Of a stretch of DNA of 64,000 bases, positions 22,229-28,228 are shown in pieces. The first letter of the stretch is position 1, and each line of letters starts with the position of its first letter. Both the position numbers and the translations under genes were made by a program. Origin of the DNA: Escherichia coli (lineage in GTDB: Bacteria > Pseudomonadota > Gammaproteobacteria > Enterobacterales > Enterobacteriaceae). The stretch lies in NCBI RefSeq assembly GCF_044647545.1, contig NZ_CP172818.1. One strand, 5' to 3'. The notes beneath the pieces are model-generated. The model made no database searches, had not been told where the DNA came from, and saw only the letters and a program-made list of their open reading frames with translations.

Positions 22229-22435
22229 GAGTACACTACTCTCACTGATCGGGGTTTTCAGGCACACAAATAATAAGTTTATTCGCATCGCGAAGCAAAC
22301 AGGGGCCAGCCTGTTGCCGATTTTCCATCCAATGATGCTTTCACCAGGCGGCGCTAACCCGGACGTAGACTGTATTACAAAAGCGGCAAAAAGCAGAGAC
22401 AAAAAAACCCCGCTTTACAGCGAGGGTTTGAAATT

Positions 22436-22511
<76 letters not shown>

Positions 22512-22550: not shown

Positions 22551-22626
<76 letters not shown>

Positions 22627-22846
22627 GTCACGTAAAGCTTGTCGAGTTGACGGGCGGCATCATATGAATTCCGCCCGAATGTGTCAACGGCAAATTGCAA
22701 CCTGTAGTTTCAATCGCTGAAAAATCAGGCAAATGAACAATTTTGGAAAACCGCTCGCATTCAGTAGTTATTCATGTCACGGTTTCCTGTAAAGTGGTGT
22801 TATAAAATGAACTACTAATAGACCCACATACATTCAGGGAATTGTT

Positions 22847-23206
22847 ATGTTCAAGGAGAGGATGACGCCAGATGAACTTGCCAGACTGACCGGCTATAGC
22901 CGCCAGACCATTAATAAATGGGTACGCAAGGAAGGCTGGACAACGTCACCAAAACCAGGCGTCCAGGGTGGCAAAGCTCGACTGGTTCACGTCAATGAAC
23001 AGGTTCGTGAATATATTCGCAATGCTGAACGTCCGGAAAGTCAGGGAGAAGCGCCAGCCCTTTCTGGTGATGCGCCGCTTGAAGTATTGCTGGTGACACT
23101 GGCGAAAGAGATGACGCCAGTTGAACAAAAACAGTTTACATCCTTGCTTCTGCGGGAAGGGATTATCGGATTGTTACAACGCTTAGGGATTCGCGATAGC
23201 AAATAA
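22847..23206 (+). CDS. yfeC: small putative DNA-binding protein (DUF1323); the start may instead be the ATG at 22862
   Basis: ORF track 119 aa; paralogous to the adjacent yfeD. Confidence 0.72.
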   Translation: MFKERMTPDELARLTGYSRQTINKWVRKEGWTTSPKPGVQGGKARLVHVNEQVREYIRNAERPESQGEAPALSGDAPLEVLLVTLAKEMTPVEQKQFTSLLLREGIIGLLQRLGIRDSK

Positions 23207-23207
23207 T

Positions 23208-23600
23208 ATGAAAAGATTACGCAATAAAATGACCACCGAAGAACTGGCTGAATGCCTCGGTGTGGCTAAACAAACTGTTAACCGTTGGATCAGAGAAAAA
23301 GGCTGGAAAACGGAAAAATTTCCCGGCGTGAAAGGAGGTCGTGCCAGACTTATTCTGGTCGATACGCAAGTTTGCGAGTTTATTCAGAACACGCCAGCCT
23401 TCCATAACACGCCGATGCTTCTGGAAGCCGAAGAACCCCTTGCCGAATACGCACCGGGGATTCGCACTCCTGCTTATCGGCAAATCATCAGCGCAATAGA
23501 CAACATGACTCACAGTGAGCAGGAAAAAGTTGCGCAATTTTTGTCACGCGAAGGAATTCGTAATTTCCTTGCTCGTCTCGATATTGACGAATCAGCATAA
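23208..23600 (+). CDS. yfeD: small putative DNA-binding protein (DUF1323), paralog of yfeC
   Basis: 130 aa; shares the xxELAxxxGxxxQTxNxWxRxxGW...GxKGGxARL...Q core with YfeC. Confidence 0.75.
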   Translation: MKRLRNKMTTEELAECLGVAKQTVNRWIREKGWKTEKFPGVKGGRARLILVDTQVCEFIQNTPAFHNTPMLLEAEEPLAEYAPGIRTPAYRQIISAIDNMTHSEQEKVAQFLSREGIRNFLARLDIDESA

Positions 23601-23601
23601 A

Positions 23602-23645
23602 TAAAAAAACGGCAGGATATTATCTCCTGCCGTTTATCTTTTTAT
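23602..23645. terminator. bidirectional intrinsic terminator between yfeD and gltX
   Basis: A-run, hairpin acggcagga-tattatc-tcctgccgt (23609-23633), then T-rich tract. Confidence 0.6.
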
Positions 23646-23652
23646 ACGCTAA

Positions 23653-25068
23653 TTACTGCTGGTTTTCGCGTTCAGCAATAAAGGCCAGCGCTTTGTTGAT
23701 ACGCTCAATGCTACGAGTCTTACCGATCGCGTGAACGGTAACATCCAGCGCTGGAGACTGCCCCGCACCGGTTACGGCGACACGCAGCGGCATACCAACT
23801 TTACCCATACCCACTTCCAGCTCATCCGCCGTCGCCTGAATAGCGTGATGAACGTTTTCAGCGGTCCAGTCAGTAATCGCAGTCAGTTTGTCACGAACCA
23901 CTTCCAGCGGCTGACGCGCTACCGGACGCAGATGTTTTTTCGCGGCGTCGGCATCGAACTCAGCAAAATCTTCGTAGAAATAACGGCAGCTCTGTGCCAT
24001 CTCTTTCAGCGTCTTGCAGCGTTCGCCCAGCAGTTTCACCAGATCAGCCAGCTGCGGGCCGTTACGGGTATCGATATTTTCCTGCTCAATGTGCCACTGT
24101 AAGTGAGTAGCAACATACTCCGGCGGCAGCGCGTTAATGTAGTGATGGTTCAGCCACAGCAGCTTGTCGGTGTTGAACGCACTGGCAGATTTGCTGACGG
24201 CATTCAGAGTGAAGTATTTGATCATCTCTTCACGAGTGAAGATTTCCTGATCGCCGTGGGACCAGCCCAGACGCACCAGATAGTTCAGCAGTGCTTCTGG
24301 CAGATAACCATCATCACGATACTGCATTACGCTGACCGCCCCGTGACGTTTGGACAGTTTTTTACCGTCATCGCCGTTGATCATAGAAACGTGCGCGTAA
24401 ACCGGTACCGGCGCTTTCAGGGCTTTAAGAATGTTGATCTGGCGCGGCGTGTTGTTGATATGGTCTTCGCCACGGATAACATGGGTGATTTCCATATCCC
24501 AGTCATCAACAACCACACAGAAGTTATAGGTTGGGGAACCATCGGTACGACGGATAATCAGATCATCCAGCTCCTGGTTGCTGAACTCAATCGGGCCACG
24601 GATCTGATCGTCAAAAACAACAGAACCTTCCTGCGGGTTAGCAAAACGTACAACGCACGGTTCATCATCAGCATGATGCTCATGGCTGTGGCGGCAGCGA
24701 CCGTCATAACGCGGCTTCTCACCTTTCGCCATTTGCTCTTCGCGCAGCGCTTCCAGGCGCTCTTTAGAGCAATAGCATTTATAAGCTGTGCCCTCTTCCA
24801 GCATCTGATCGATCACCGCGTTGTAGCGATCAAAACGTTTGGTCTGGTAGTACGGACCTTCATCCCACTCCAGGCTCAGCCAGTTCATGCCATCCATAAT
24901 GGCTTCGATAGCTTCCGGCGTGGAACGCTCAAGATCGGTGTCTTCAATACGCAGCACGAACTCACCGCCGTGGTTACGTGCAAAAAGCCAGGAGTAAAGA
25001 GCAGTACGCGCGCCGCCAACGTGCAGATAGCCTGTTGGGCTTGGCGCGAAGCGAGTTTTGATTTTCAT
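23653..25068 (-). CDS. gltX: glutamyl-tRNA synthetase
   Basis: 471 aa; class I HIGH-type motif ([12 protein letters not shown]) and KLSKR (KMSKS-type) motif. Confidence 0.96.
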
Positions 25069-25834: not shown

Positions 25835-26719
25835 CTACTGCGCCAACGCCGCCAGCAGTTTAACCAGCGCGGGCGTCACCTGCTGCGTTTCATAAACAAT
25901 ATATAAGTCTGCCGGGATGCGTTCTTTGAGCGGACGGAATATGACACCGGGCCAGTTCATCTGCGCGTAGCTGTCCGCTATCAATGTGATACCAATACCC
26001 ATACTGACCATGGCGAGTACCGTTTGCGGTTCATTAACTTCGCGAATAACAACCGGTGAAAATCCCACCTGCTGGCAAACTCGCTGCAAAAAATCCCAGT
26101 CAGTGTACACGGGCGGCATTGTAACGAAATACTCGTCACGTAGCGCTTCCAGCGGGACGGTGGAAAATGATGAGAGATGATGCTCTTCAGGCATCGCCAC
26201 CAGAAACGCCGATTCATGCAACCGTAAGCTGGTAAAACCAGTCGGTGGTTCTGTCGCCATTCGCCAGATCCCGGCATCAAGTTCGCGGCGTTCCAGCAAG
26301 GCCATTTGCATCGCGGGCATCTTTTCGCGAAACAGAACTTCAACGTTAGGATTTTCTCTAAGGAATCGCCGCATAACCGGGCGCATCCGTCCCCACATTG
26401 CCGTTCCCACAACCCCGAGTTCAATCCGCCCTGCTTCTCCCCGACCTATTTGTTCAACCCGAGCCAATACATTATTTGCATTCACCAACAATCGACGCGA
26501 TTCTTCCATCAAGATTTTGCCCGCGTGTGTCAGTACGACGCTGCGTGAATGGCGAATAAAAAGCTGCGTGCCAAGTTGATTTTCCAGCTCTTTAATATGA
26601 ATACTGAGCGGAGGCTGAGACATATTTAAACGCGCTGCTGCGCGACCAAAATGCAACTCTTCCGCTACGGCAAGAAAATAACGGAGCAACTTAAGATCTG
26701 TTCTATATACGCGTTCCAT
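25835..26719 (-). CDS. xapR: LysR-family activator of the xanthosine operon
   Basis: Start at reverse-strand ATG 26717-26719 gives 294 aa MERVYRTDLKLLRYFLAVAEELHFGRAA (LysR HTH). Confidence 0.88.
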   Translation of the reverse strand: MERVYRTDLKLLRYFLAVAEELHFGRAAARLNMSQPPLSIHIKELENQLGTQLFIRHSRSVVLTHAGKILMEESRRLLVNANNVLARVEQIGRGEAGRIELGVVGTAMWGRMRPVMRRFLRENPNVEVLFREKMPAMQMALLERRELDAGIWRMATEPPTGFTSLRLHESAFLVAMPEEHHLSSFSTVPLEALRDEYFVTMPPVYTDWDFLQRVCQQVGFSPVVIREVNEPQTVLAMVSMGIGITLIADSYAQMNWPGVIFRPLKERIPADLYIVYETQQVTPALVKLLAALAQ

Positions 26720-26971
26720 AATTAAGTGCTCCATATAAAAAAATATATCGTATTAAATTATCATGGCATAAAGTATTTCACCACCAGATATCCGACATAC
26801 ATAAACACGATGGATAATATACCCGGCAATACATTTGGAACAGGAATAGGTAATCGCACGATTGTAAACAAAGCACCAATGCCAAAACCAACGCCAGAAG
26901 AAAATAAAATATCTTTCACTAATTAACCTTTATCATAAAAGCAGCCCCAAGGAACAGAGCTGCGAATCCTT

Positions 26972-28228
26972 TTAATGTGTAACTGAACGATGCGTTATCT
27001 TTTCAGGGTCATGGTTATATTTAAACCCAAAGAAAAATATCACTGCGAGGAAAAGAGCATACCCTGCAAACATCAGCCAAATGGTATGCCAATCTTTTAC
27101 GCCATCCACCGAGAAGTAATCCACTGCCATACCGCTCAGAATCGAGCCAACCCATGCGCCGACGCCATTTACCATCGTCATAAAAAGGCCCTGGGCGCTG
27201 GCACGAATGCTGGAATCAACTTCCTGTTCGACAAAGACCGAACCAGAAATATTGAAGAAATCGAATGCACAACCGTAAACAATCATCGACAGCAGCAACA
27301 AAATAAACCCGGTTGGTGATGGGTCGCCATAGGCAAAGAAGCCAAAGCGCAGCGTCCACGCCACCATACTCATCAGCATGACGGTTTTAATACCGAAACG
27401 CTTCAAAAAGAACGGTATCGTCAGAATGAAACCGACTTCAGCCATCTGTGAAACTGACAGTAAAATGGACGGGTATTTCACCACGAAGCTATCAGCAAAC
27501 TCAGGATTACGGGCGAAATCATGCAGGAACGGGTTGCCAAAAACGTTGGTAATTTGCAGCACCGCACCCAGCATCATGGCGAAGAGGAAAAAGATAGCCA
27601 TGCGTGGATTTTTAAACAGCACGAAGGCATCCAGGCCCAGCTTGCTGGCAAGCGATGTAGTCGCTTTTTTCTCCGCAACCGGAATCTTCGGCAAAGTCAG
27701 CGCATAAGCCGACAGCAGCAATGACGCACCGGACGCGATATACAGTTGCAGACTACTCAATTCCAGATGCAGCAGGCTTACTGCCCACATGGCGACAATG
27801 AACCCCACCGTACCAAAAACGCGAATGGGCGGGAAAGCGGTCACCGGGTCAAGCCCTGCCTGGGCAAGACAGGAATAAGAGACGCTGTTCGATAACGCAA
27901 TAGTCGGCATAAACGCCATCGCATTGACTAACATCACCCAAAACATCATATCCGGATCAGTTACGGATGCCGCATAAAAAAGTACGCCCGCACACACCAG
28001 GTGACACAGCATGTATGCACGTTCTGCACGCAGCCATTTGTCTGCGATGATCCCCATTATACCAGGCATAATAATCGCGGCGATCCCTTTGGAACTGTAA
28101 ACCATGCCAACATTAGCGCCGGTGAAATGAAGGGTATTAATCATGTAAGAACCGAGGGTAACCAGCCAGCTCCCCCAGATAAAATATTGCAAAAAGGACA
28201 TTACCTTTAAGCGCAAAGCGATGCTCAT
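26972..28228 (-). CDS. xapB: xanthosine/nucleoside:H+ symporter (MFS, NHS family)
   Basis: 418 aa, 12-TM MFS transporter; synteny with xapA and xapR. Confidence 0.9.
   Translation of the reverse strand: MSIALRLKVMSFLQYFIWGSWLVTLGSYMINTLHFTGANVGMVYSSKGIAAIIMPGIMGIIADKWLRAERAYMLCHLVCAGVLFYAASVTDPDMMFWVMLVNAMAFMPTIALSNSVSYSCLAQAGLDPVTAFPPIRVFGTVGFIVAMWAVSLLHLELSSLQLYIASGASLLLSAYALTLPKIPVAEKKATTSLASKLGLDAFVLFKNPRMAIFFLFAMMLGAVLQITNVFGNPFLHDFARNPEFADSFVVKYPSILLSVSQMAEVGFILTIPFFLKRFGIKTVMLMSMVAWTLRFGFFAYGDPSPTGFILLLLSMIVYGCAFDFFNISGSVFVEQEVDSSIRASAQGLFMTMVNGVGAWVGSILSGMAVDYFSVDGVKDWHTIWLMFAGYALFLAVIFFFGFKYNHDPEKITHRSVTH

Follow-up and report, generated by a model that had tools for sequence, protein, structure and literature searches.

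The yfeC-yfeD pair of Escherichia coli: tandem paralogs related to the Mu repressor between tRNA-Ala genes and gltX

The yfeC-yfeD locus

We analysed a locus within a stretch of Escherichia coli DNA of 64,000 nucleotides (contig NZ_CP172818.1; hereafter the window, whose positions are used throughout), in which open reading frame calls place two small plus-strand genes of 119 and 130 codons next to each other. RefSeq names for 100%-identical DNA are yfeC (WP_000472027.1) and yfeD (WP_000826499.1), and the pair is that known in E. coli K-12 as YfeC (b2398) and YfeD (b2399). The family, fold class and in vivo sites of the two proteins were already on record in databases and one 2021 paper. Nothing at the locus differs in kind from K-12, the one difference being that yfeC is annotated with 119 aa in this strain versus 114 aa (start at 22862) in K-12. 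The features of the locus are as follows.

22436-22511 and 22551-22626, minus strand: two tRNA-Ala(GGC) genes, upstream of yfeC
22627-22846: alaW-yfeC intergenic region, with a divergent tRNA-Ala promoter on the minus strand at 22687-22659 (promoter scan)
22798-22806, plus strand: candidate extended -10 element TGtTATAAA, suggested by reading the sequence
22847-23206, plus strand: yfeC coding sequence, 119 aa (ORF call; RefSeq; PF07037, E = 2e-51; upstream ATG in 79/79 species)
22862-22877, plus strand: first copy, within yfeC, of the 16-nt direct repeat ATGACGCCAG(A/T)TGAAC (from the sequence)
23111-23126, plus strand: second copy of this repeat (from the sequence)
23204-23210, plus strand: yfeC stop/yfeD start junction, TAAtATG (from the sequence)
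23208-23600, plus strand: yfeD coding sequence, 130 aa (ORF call; RefSeq; PF07037, E = 2e-61)
23607-23635: bidirectional intrinsic terminator common to yfeD and the convergent gltX (11-bp stem, T-runs on both strands)
23653-25068: gltX, convergent, downstream of yfeD

As the original prediction had it, the genes are adjacent on the same strand with 1 nt between stop and start, and the window annotation confirms their placement between tRNA-Ala genes and gltX. The locus was found in 5425 of 5426 complete E. coli genomes, and its neighbours in E. coli and ~80 species are pdeA, tRNA-Ala and gltX. The gap is again 1 nt in 45 of 79 species pairs, with short gaps or overlaps in the others, and translation of the two genes may well be coupled at this junction. 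Because the ATG at 22847 and the N-terminal peptide that follows from it, M-[I/L/F/V]-K-[E/D]-[R/M]-M-T, are present in all 79 species compared, we favour the 119-aa form of yfeC over the 114-aa form. The two 16-nt repeat copies delimit exactly a deletion within yfeC of Escherichia sp. MOD1-EC7003.

The two genes are probably co-transcribed, since no terminator-like site was found on the plus strand between them, only 1 nt separates them and a single bidirectional terminator follows yfeD. Their promoter presumably also lies within 22627-22846. The promoter scan gave no sigma-70 consensus site on the plus strand upstream of yfeC, only the minus-strand tRNA promoter, and a repeat search of the upstream region returned short, chance-level repeats only. 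Rfam identified the tRNAs alone and nothing within or around yfeCD.

Domain layout and relation to the Mu repressor

Both proteins match the Pfam family PF07037 (YfeC-like, formerly DUF1323) over model positions 1-122 of 122, with 173.8 bits for YfeC and 206.1 bits for YfeD against a cut-off of 22.9. The family is tiny, comprising 126 clusters among 1.84 billion representative proteins. The AlphaFold2 model of YfeD contains a confident winged helix, made up of a strand, two helices, a beta-hairpin wing and a further helix, and a helical C-terminal domain (mean pLDDT 82). The pair had been described beforehand as small, putative HTH-like DNA-binding proteins, a description that agrees with the structure prediction for YfeD and with profile matches, and that can now be narrowed to a Mu-type winged helix-turn-helix. 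The parts of the two proteins are listed below, where the fused model is a structure prediction for the C-terminal regions of both proteins, connected through a flexible linker and modelled with a paired alignment.

22862-23029, plus strand: YfeC residues 6-61, Mu-type winged helix-turn-helix with wing PGVQGGKAR (profile and hhalign matches; 51% identity to the YfeD domain)
23030-23077, plus strand: YfeC residues 62-77, variable linker (unalignable with YfeD, least conserved among orthologs, pLDDT <50 in the fused model)
23078-23185, plus strand: YfeC residues 78-113, predicted C-terminal helical hairpin (helices 78-88 and 91-113 in the fused model)
23226-23405, plus strand: YfeD residues 7-66, N-terminal winged helix-turn-helix
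23406-23468, plus strand: YfeD residues 67-87, disordered linker (pLDDT 51-71, residues 75-81 <50)
23469-23576, plus strand: YfeD residues 88-123, C-terminal helical domain (helices 88-98, 102-115 and 117-123 in the YfeD model)

In the fused model the C-terminal helices of YfeD likewise form a two-helix hairpin. The YfeD linker contains a patch, A-E-E-P-x-A-x-Y, that is kept across the family (alignment consensus AAEPxAxY).

Searched against the PDB, the family profile matched MuA domain I-alpha (1tns) at E = 3.9e-6 and the Mu repressor (1g4d/1qpm) at 0.03, while a single-protein search returned a marginal MuA match (E = 0.0099) and otherwise noise. By hhalign the family aligned with MuA residues 1-100 at 95% probability and with full-length Repc, the Mu repressor, at 92% probability (E = 5.8e-7), the latter alignment extending into the C-terminal domain and ending at Repc residue 111 of 174. 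In the reverse search, Mu Repc residues 20-111 matched Pfam YfeC-like at 23.3 bits (cut-off 22.9), and the Repc family phrog_7148 matched YfeC at E = 0.0025 and YfeD at E = 0.0093. Judging from these sequence comparisons, which agree in both directions, homology to Repc appears to span the whole layout and the first two-thirds of the repressor. The relation to the Mu-type HTH is at the superfamily, not the family, level: Pfam PF02316 (HTH_Tnp_Mu_1) gives YfeC 15 bits against a cut-off of 23.3 and does not list YfeD.

The likeness to Repc includes the wing, which reads PGVQGGKAR and PGVKGGRAR in the pair and GVKGGKA in Mu, and it runs past the linker, where the family pattern '...MTxxEQxxLxxLLxREGIxGxL' aligns with Repc '...LEPDEARKALKLLSKGGLLALM'. 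For the C-terminal domain alone the match to Repc is weak (hhalign E = 0.0032, probability 10%; phrog_7148, 0.033), whereas a C-terminal 44-aa piece of YfeD by itself matches the phage repressor family phrog_3037 (E = 6.7e-4), which the C-terminal half of Repc matches too. The central leucine-rich region of Repc mediates oligomerisation, and its remaining ~60 residues form a protease-sensitive tail. By analogy, we propose that the C-terminal domain of YfeC and YfeD may play the same role as the Repc central region, and the YfeC hairpin, whose part of the family profile aligns with that central region, is a probable oligomerisation domain.

The pair also departs from Repc in several respects. 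YfeC and YfeD stop right after the region that corresponds to the centre of Repc, without its last ~60 residues, and are accordingly shorter (119 and 130 aa versus 174-196 aa for phrog_7148 repressors); their genes belong to the chromosomal core and have none of ner, A and B beside them, and the proteins bind host sites rather than Mu operators.

Paralogy and evolution of the pair

BLASTP aligns YfeC with YfeD at 36% identity over 128 columns (E = 5e-27), and their local alignment score of 205 compares with 27 ± 5 in 2000 shuffles (z = 37). Identity reaches 51% (28/55) in the N-terminal core and ~34% (14/41, invariant columns) in the C-terminal ~40 residues, with z = 11 for the C-terminal part alone; the linkers are unalignable and differ in length (17 versus 25 aa). 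YfeC and YfeD sequences form one monophyletic clade each, between which single-copy outgroup homologs from the same locus (Chimaeribacter) branch, and one Yersiniaceae genus has a single-copy homolog in the same tRNA-Ala/gltX slot. The pattern is that of one in-place tandem duplication between tRNA-Ala and gltX, near the base of Enterobacteriaceae. Of what the original prediction said here, the shared core and C-terminal tail and the origin by tandem duplication both hold, but the word 'ancient' has to be limited to roughly the base of Enterobacteriaceae and no deeper.

Arrangement at the locus was surveyed by a scan with a 10-sequence alignment as query, from which the best 80 loci, all in Enterobacteriaceae, were taken, more distant members being traced singly. 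The order yfeC→yfeD was found in 79 of these best 80 species loci; of 84 loci, 74 have a convergent gltX and 79 an upstream tRNA-Ala gene. One species carries yfeC and two yfeD copies, and in another yfeC is reduced to its C-terminal domain.

Purifying selection acts on both genes (dN/dS 0.083 for YfeC and 0.116 for YfeD), yfeD being the faster-evolving by a factor of about two (dN of YfeD ~2x that of YfeC). We regard yfeCD as a clean, family-restricted case of a phage-repressor-like fold that was fixed in a core genome and then duplicated.

Binding sites, oligomeric state and alternative readings

The view held at the outset that the targets of these proteins are unknown is out of date, as ChIP-exo data for YfeC and YfeD, along with RNA-seq of a ΔyfeC strain, were published by Gao (2021; PMC8464067), in a paper that nowhere mentions paralogy or heterodimers. 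Its lists contain ~50 YfeC sites and ~43 YfeD sites, of which one, at ispB/sfsB, is identical between the two (S/N 28.6 and 57.6). Allowing at most one mismatch, TTCCGGAA occurs in 4 of 18 YfeC sites compared with 3.4% of background windows, and the 10-mer with at most two mismatches in 7 of 18 compared with 4.7%; the strongest YfeC sites appear to carry a TTCCGGAA-like palindrome, a motif derived from 18 sites and an assumed coordinate shift, with examples upstream of chaC and at mukF and fdoG. At up to one mismatch TTCCGGAA was found in none of the nine top YfeD sites, among which inspection by eye made no common motif evident and showed CAGCAA in three. YfeD also has a peak in front of ybaQ, 25-32 nt upstream of its start codon. 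The site common to both proteins falls at the 5' end of sfsB, annotated as 'putative transcriptional regulator SfsB', whose product we take to be the E. coli homolog of Mu Ner (Nlp); its position echoes the phage c/ner arrangement.

One published YfeC peak had been assigned to 'yfeC' itself (2516052-2516085 in NC_000913.2). We placed it by a +1978 shift from NC_000913.2 to NC_000913.3, where yfeC starts at 2518467, and it then corresponds to the following feature.

22425-22458: published YfeC ChIP-exo peak, at the alaX 3' end and terminator rather than the yfeC promoter

The peak is 437 bp upstream of the K-12 yfeC start (22862) and is without a TTCCGGAA-like motif, and there is no YfeC peak in the yfeC promoter; autoregulation of yfeC through binding was rejected on these grounds. 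Within the promoter region, the closest approach to the motif is TTTCCTGTAA at 22783; its two mismatches are within chance for 250 bp.

Two properties of the published data bear on how they may be read. The ChIP-exo strains carried C-terminal 8xmyc tags, which adjoin the proposed dimerisation domain, and 3' tagging of yfeC also disrupts the yfeC-yfeD junction, so that the disjoint site sets of the two proteins could partly be artefactual. Many of the YfeC 'targets' and ΔyfeC changes, moreover, concern short, highly expressed genes (rpmH, rpmJ, rpsU, lpp), and some of these gene classes change in ΔyciT as well, which suggests batch or hyper-ChIPable effects.

In the published ΔyfeC transcriptome, yfeD rose about 20-fold (log2 +4.33, padj 5e-133), a change of far greater significance than any other in the rows of the list that we examined, and ybaQ fell (log2 -5.16, padj 4e-15). 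These values suggest that YfeC may control yfeD, and the rise of yfeD upon loss of yfeC may link the two in a cascade, or it could be read-through from the deletion construct, the design of which is not described. Since yfeD is the top change among those rows and ybaQ, which carries a YfeD site, collapses, the ΔyfeC transcriptome may largely reflect YfeD over-expression, in which case the 'YfeC regulon' would need re-reading. Published deletions of yfeC were viable in three studies (K-12, EHEC and K1), and the phenotypes reported are scattered, ranging from extracellular DNA release and gut colonisation by E. coli K1 to an absence of effect on LEE, the type 3 secretion locus of EHEC.

Taken together, we think it likely that yfeC and yfeD form a two-gene operon of the Enterobacteriaceae core chromosome that encodes two small, dimeric, Mu-repressor-like paralogs of PF07037 acting mainly as separate transcription factors. 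In each, a Mu-type winged helix-turn-helix would lead, over a disordered and variable linker, to a helical hairpin of ~36 residues, a layout homologous to the DNA-binding and central regions of Repc, minus its C-terminal tail and outside any prophage context. After duplication in place the copies would have diverged, YfeD about twice as fast, and pairing of the C-terminal hairpins into a four-helix bundle would allow both to bind DNA as dimers. YfeC would read short TTCCGGAA-like palindromes, and YfeD would occupy largely different sites, the ybaQ promoter among them. That they would act mainly as separate regulators in vivo, and not as an obligate heterodimer, is favoured by the nearly disjoint site sets.

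Dimerisation through the C-terminal domain is suggested by the fused model, in which the C-terminal domains of YfeC and YfeD pack together, with pTM 0.49 and 72 of 152 residues ordered. By our own estimate this pTM is ~2x the value possible for one 36-residue domain, which implies that the two hairpins are placed against each other; such packing is compatible with homodimers and heterodimers alike. Foldseek found no PDB structure similar to the fused C-terminal-domain model. On the question of homo- or hetero-oligomers, the palindromic YfeC motif would fit a symmetric homodimer.

The main rival reading, which takes up the heterodimer suggested in the original prediction, is that coupled translation from one mRNA lets the C-terminal hairpins join into an obligate or predominant YfeC:YfeD hetero-oligomer, which would be the DNA-binding unit. 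The 1-nt junction, the gene order in all but one of the best 80 loci, purifying selection on the C-terminal domain in both paralogs and the predicted packing of the linker-joined regions (pTM 0.49) are what such a complex would lead one to expect; the single common site at ispB/sfsB has good signal, and the complex could have been disrupted by the tags and the cassette placement used in the published work. We nevertheless judge this reading rather improbable, given just that one identical site among the ~50 and ~43 rows, top sites that are unlike in sequence content, a YfeC motif that is a symmetric palindrome, a two-fold gap in evolution rates, the species with a second yfeD and that with a truncated yfeC, and viable cells in which yfeD is up 20-fold without YfeC. 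Somewhat less probable again is a coupled switch with two tiers, built from a domesticated Mu-type repressor module, in which mixed oligomers would form through the Repc-like hairpins while YfeC holds yfeD ~20-fold down, so that the YfeC:YfeD ratio would set whether YfeC palindromes are occupied or YfeD sites, the ybaQ promoter for instance. As a pair of paralogs, yfeCD could serve to examine by what means dimeric regulators escape cross-dimerisation or put it to use.

Three further class labels were weighed. Homology to Mu Repc and the MuA DNA-binding domain, excisionases among the closest folds, the name AlpA given to some members by JGI, a TIGR01764 'excise' score of 27.5 bits for YfeD that comes near the cut-off of 28.8, and tRNA genes on both sides of the locus might all speak for the remnant of a mobile element that still serves it, either as a Mu-like repressor/immunity pair or as an excisionase-type recombination directionality factor. 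We hold this to be very unlikely, as the neighbourhood contains neither an integrase or transposase nor ner or any other phage gene, the locus keeps its position in ~80 species and, as a single copy, in the Yersiniaceae genus, GC content (46-48%) is only slightly below that of the adjacent genes, selection is strongly purifying, ChIP sites are dispersed over host genes and tblastn of 50,697 phage records returned no match. Plasmid matches proved to be chromosomes mis-filed as plasmids, or fragments. Assignment as an excisionase was rejected with TIGR01764 scores of 27.5 and 18.7 bits against 28.8, no integrase nearby and a fixed locus, and a transposable-phage context with divergent ner and transposase A/B is likewise absent from the locus, the phage records searched holding no homolog.

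In our estimate slightly less credible than the mobile-element label is a type II toxin-antitoxin pair, a computational prediction made in 2007 by RASTA-Bacteria, which puts yfeD/yfeC among its new pairs of high confidence; a 2018 TraDIS paper repeats the prediction. The genes are indeed small and closely joined, and one of them has an antitoxin-like helix-turn-helix, but the products are paralogous and share the same two-domain DNA-binding layout, and searches of Pfam, NCBIfam and PADLOC assigned neither of them a toxin domain; a 'toxin' name came up only with YdaS_toxin (PF15943), matched below threshold within residues 10-34 of the N-terminal HTH. Rather than being patchy or mobile, the locus keeps a fixed, syntenic place throughout the family, and ΔyfeC cells are viable in the three studies, in K-12 even with yfeD 20-fold up.

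The least probable reading of all, that of ordinary members of a large effector-sensing family, draws on the RefSeq product name 'MerR family' for YfeD, the listing of both proteins under LysR in a 2016 compilation (PMC4797297) and the MerR-like winged-helix superfamily fold, and it founders on Pfam MerR_1 (PF13411) scores of 12.3-12.6 bits against a cut-off of 21.6, on a disordered linker (67-87) and three short helices (88-123) in YfeD where MerR would have a long coiled-coil helix and effector domain, and, for LysR, on the absence of HTH_1 and substrate-binding domains (Pfam) in proteins of 119-130 aa versus ~300. Small MerR-like or excisionase-like winged helices without an effector domain do exist in BldC, RacA, pSK1 Par, phage Xis and TorI, with which YfeC and YfeD share only 21-23% sequence identity; these are single domains or form head-to-tail oligomers on DNA, whereas YfeC and YfeD add a C-terminal helical domain.

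The yfeC-yfeD locus

The pair lies on the E. coli chromosome, and the open reading frame and tRNA calls bore out the original prediction of adjacent same-strand genes, 1 base apart from stop to start, flanked by tRNA-Ala and gltX.

Features of the yfeC-yfeD locus (window coordinates)
Upstream of yfeC, opposite strand to yfeCD: two tRNA-Ala(GGC) genes
22847-23206, + strand: yfeC, called open reading frame of 119 aa
23208-23600, + strand: yfeD, called open reading frame of 130 aa
23607-23635: two-way intrinsic terminator common to yfeD and gltX
Downstream of yfeD, convergent: gltX

Around yfeCD, Rfam matched the tRNAs and no other RNA family. The GC content of the two genes (46–48%) is slightly under that of their neighbours, and several RefSeq genomes match the 1.1-kb stretch spanning them at 100% identity; of 5426 complete E. 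coli genomes, 5425 carry it. Elsewhere, just past xapR (26400-27200), GC content falls to 38–44% against ~50% in the surrounding sequence. The K-12 annotation starts yfeC at the ATG at 22862 (114 aa), PGAP at 22847 (119 aa). Because the ATG at 22847, the peptide M-[I/L/F/V]-K-[E/D]-[R/M]-M-T and a Shine-Dalgarno-like AGGAAA/AGGGAA 5–7 nt ahead of that ATG were conserved in every one of the 79 species compared, the K-12 annotation probably omits the first five codons.

The two proteins had also been described as relatives sharing a core and a C-terminal tail. BLASTP aligned them at 36% identity (E=5e-27), with a score 37 standard deviations over shuffled controls. Identity reaches 51% over the N-terminal 55 residues and about 34% over the last ~40, a stretch significant even when taken alone (z=11); between them lie linkers of unequal length that cannot be aligned. 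Pfam PF07037 (YfeC-like, formerly DUF1323) matches both end to end (YfeC E=2e-51, YfeD E=2e-61). Since reading frames, flanks, BLASTP, shuffles and Pfam all agree, this observation was correct throughout.

Duplication and conservation of the pair

Among 1.84 billion representative proteins, the family comprises 126 clusters at E≤0.001, many of them fragments; its named members come from Enterobacteriaceae and from Chimaeribacter (Yersiniaceae). The same search also yielded long proteins of many tandem HTH-like repeats, such as P0164 (1312 aa), in which a unit of roughly 70 residues, '...ELVEMYKTNT..EMA..LGVS..TI..WL.EAKQEGYAEEL.EIRS...', was matched 14 times.

Among the best 80 species loci gathered with a YfeD-led profile, 79 carry a yfeC ortholog immediately upstream of yfeD, with a gap of 1 nt in 45 of the 79; in the others the two genes lie a few bases apart or overlap slightly. 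In a neighbour-joining tree the upstream copies form one clade and the downstream copies another. A single family member occupies the equivalent slot in Chimaeribacter (nupC ... gene >< gltX), a lone member immediately adjoins gltX on another contig, and both branch between the YfeC and YfeD clades. The simplest reading of these trees and neighbourhoods is a single in-place tandem duplication, as predicted; its supposed antiquity can be narrowed to near the base of Enterobacteriaceae.

Of 84 loci, 74 have a convergent gltX no more than 400 nt away and 79 have an upstream tRNA-Ala. The only breaks in this otherwise rigid synteny are one lineage with a metNIQ-like ABC transporter operon inserted between yfeCD and gltX (metagenome contig L087, 1054-3561) and six Kosakonia-group loci (four named Kosakonia, two 'Enterobacter sp.') in which gltX is likewise non-adjacent. 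No phage homologs were found by tblastn and no genuine plasmid homologs were found; the pair is a settled part of the host chromosome rather than a mobile element. Purifying selection acts on both genes (median dN/dS 0.083 for YfeC and 0.116 for YfeD). Amino-acid change is about twice as fast in YfeD, whose orthologs average 56% identity to the E. coli protein, against 71% for YfeC.

Enterobacter sp. BIGb0383 (L073, 3244-4387) carries three tandem family genes, yfeC-yfeD-yfeD. As its two yfeD copies are mutual closest relatives, the extra one stems from a recent further duplication. Within yfeC, a 16-nt direct repeat, ATGACGCCAG(A/T)TGAAC, occurs at 22862-22877 and 23111-23126; the first copy encodes 'MTPDE', where the winged helix begins, and the second 'MTPVE', where the C-terminal domain begins. 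An in-frame deletion lying exactly between the repeat copies has left Escherichia sp. MOD1-EC7003 (L002, 3889-3999) with a 36-aa product that consists of MFKER and the C-terminal domain alone.

Fold and relationship to the Mu repressor

The suspected HTH-like fold was recovered for YfeD as a winged helix-turn-helix in an AlphaFold2 model built from an 18-member family alignment (mean pLDDT 82).

Predicted architecture of YfeD (AlphaFold2)
Residues 7-66: winged helix-turn-helix (strand, two helices, hairpin, helix)
Residues 67-87: low-confidence linker
Residues 88-123: C-terminal region of three short helices

Searched against all PDB sequences, the family profile matched the I-alpha DNA-binding domain of the Mu transposase MuA (E=3.9e-6) and the Mu repressor Repc (0.03), a match carried by the common wing motif GVKGGKA; some orthologs are already named 'HTH Mu-type domain-containing protein' in UniRef. 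The likeness to Repc extends past the DNA-binding domain, as the linker and C-terminal helices also align. Full-length homology to Repc is well supported by profile comparison: hhalign gave 92% probability (E=5.8e-7), Repc residues 20-111 reciprocally reached 23.3 bits against Pfam YfeC-like (cut-off 22.9 bits), and Repc's own PHROG family, phrog_7148, was matched by YfeC (E=0.0025) and YfeD (E=0.0093). In the C-terminal part the family's '...MTxxEQxxLxxLLxREGIxGxL' aligns with Repc '...LEPDEARKALKLLSKGGLLALM', and a 44-residue C-terminal piece of YfeD alone matched the repressor family phrog_3037 (6.7e-4), as does the C-terminal half of Repc. Because hhalign restricted to this part was weak (E=0.0032), its homology is only moderately supported. 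Since Repc oligomerises through its central leucine-rich region, we assign by analogy a putative oligomerisation role to the C-terminal domain of YfeC/D.

RefSeq names yfeC 'YfeC-like transcriptional regulator' and yfeD 'MerR family transcriptional regulator'. The MerR label is not tenable, with MerR_1 at 12 bits (cut-off 21.6) and both coiled coil and effector domain absent; nor are LysR (LysR domains absent, proteins of only 119–130 aa) or excisionase (TIGR01764 just under its cut-off, without integrase or mobile context).

Binding sites, expression and dimer partners

The two genes, their family, their fold class and the sites they bind in vivo had all been described before, including the targets that the prediction left as unknown to it: ChIP-exo site lists exist for both tagged proteins in glucose minimal medium (Gao et al. 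2021, PMC8464067). That study reports 205 differentially expressed genes in ΔyfeC, describes YfeC as mainly a repressor tied to an earlier extracellular-DNA phenotype, lists 43 rows and a motif for YfeD without further discussion, and does not mention paralogy, heterodimers or ybaQ. Our literature search found no study dedicated to yfeC/yfeD. A K1 ΔyfeC::kan mutant showed reduced small-intestine colonisation and lethality, loss of yfeC left LEE expression unchanged in EHEC, and the YfeC protein has been detected by proteomics.

We moved the ChIP-exo coordinates from NC_000913.2 to NC_000913.3 with shift sizes assumed to be correct and checked only against a presumed 1977-bp version difference; the shift is supported because the footprints so mapped contain motifs. 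A TTCCGGAA-like palindrome is present at the strongest YfeC sites.

Motifs at YfeC sites
chaC upstream: GTCCGGAA
mukF and fdoG: TTCCGGAA
araJ: TTCCGAAA

With at most one mismatch the palindrome occurs in 4 of 18 YfeC sites vs 3.4% of background windows, and the 10-mer with at most two in 7 of 18 vs 4.7%; none of the nine top YfeD sites holds the palindrome within one mismatch. A short perfect palindrome fits a symmetric dimer. The peak published as 'yfeC' maps to 22425-22458, at the 3' end and terminator of the tRNA-Ala gene alaX, which puts it 437 bp ahead of the yfeC start annotated in K-12, and lacks a TTCCGGAA-like motif; it therefore does not support autoregulation and may instead reflect a hyper-ChIPable site with heavy transcription. 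The YfeC 'targets' include many short genes with very high expression, and because similar genes change in ΔyciT, some of the dataset may be of technical origin.

Within the portion of the ΔyfeC RNA-seq list examined, two changes stood out: yfeD rose (log2 +4.33, 20-fold; padj 5e-133) and ybaQ fell (-5.16, 36-fold; padj 4e-15). A YfeD peak (S/N 29.7) also sits ahead of ybaQ, 25–32 nt from its start codon (NC_000913.3 508186-508193, L102). On the most economical reading, YfeD would repress ybaQ, and excess YfeD would account for part of the 'YfeC regulon'. The yfeD rise itself could be either genuine de-repression or transcription running on from the deletion construct. A computationally predicted yfeD/yfeC toxin-antitoxin pair (RASTA 2007) is disfavoured, as the partners are paralogs, Pfam, NCBIfam and PADLOC gave no toxin domain, the locus is fixed, and ΔyfeC is viable with yfeD this elevated.

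Taken together, YfeC and YfeD probably act separately. The heterodimer once proposed is unlikely to predominate, although a fused single-chain model packs the two C-terminal hairpins together. For that model the linker-plus-C-terminal regions were joined by a 25-residue Gly-Ser linker, with each species' YfeC paired with its own YfeD (49 rows).

Helices in the fused model
YfeC: residues 78-88 and 91-113
YfeD: residues 88-98 and 102-123

These two helical hairpins comprise the ordered residues (72 of 152). Because the pTM of 0.49 is about twice our estimated ceiling for one rigid 36-residue domain, the model appears to place them confidently against each other, which supports the C-terminal domain as a putative dimerisation module; Foldseek of the model against PDB gave no analogue. 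YfeC:YfeD pairing is thus sterically plausible, in a model that offers no hetero- versus homodimer comparison. Against a predominant heterodimer stand nearly disjoint ChIP site sets with differing content, a caveat being that the tags were C-terminal and the yfeC cassette sat on the yfeC-yfeD junction, together with the palindromic YfeC motif, unequal evolutionary rates and the stoichiometry-changing variants in BIGb0383 and MOD1-EC7003.

The YfeC and YfeD lists share exactly one position, 3332954, which by our mapping falls just inside the 5' coding end of sfsB (NC_000913.3 3334932-3334961, L100), annotated 'putative transcriptional regulator SfsB'. Its product (Nlp) is the homolog of Mu Ner in E. 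coli, and the shared site would be a curious echo of Mu's c/ner arrangement; since a YciT peak lies ~50 bp away, it may be no more than a hot spot for ChIP signal.
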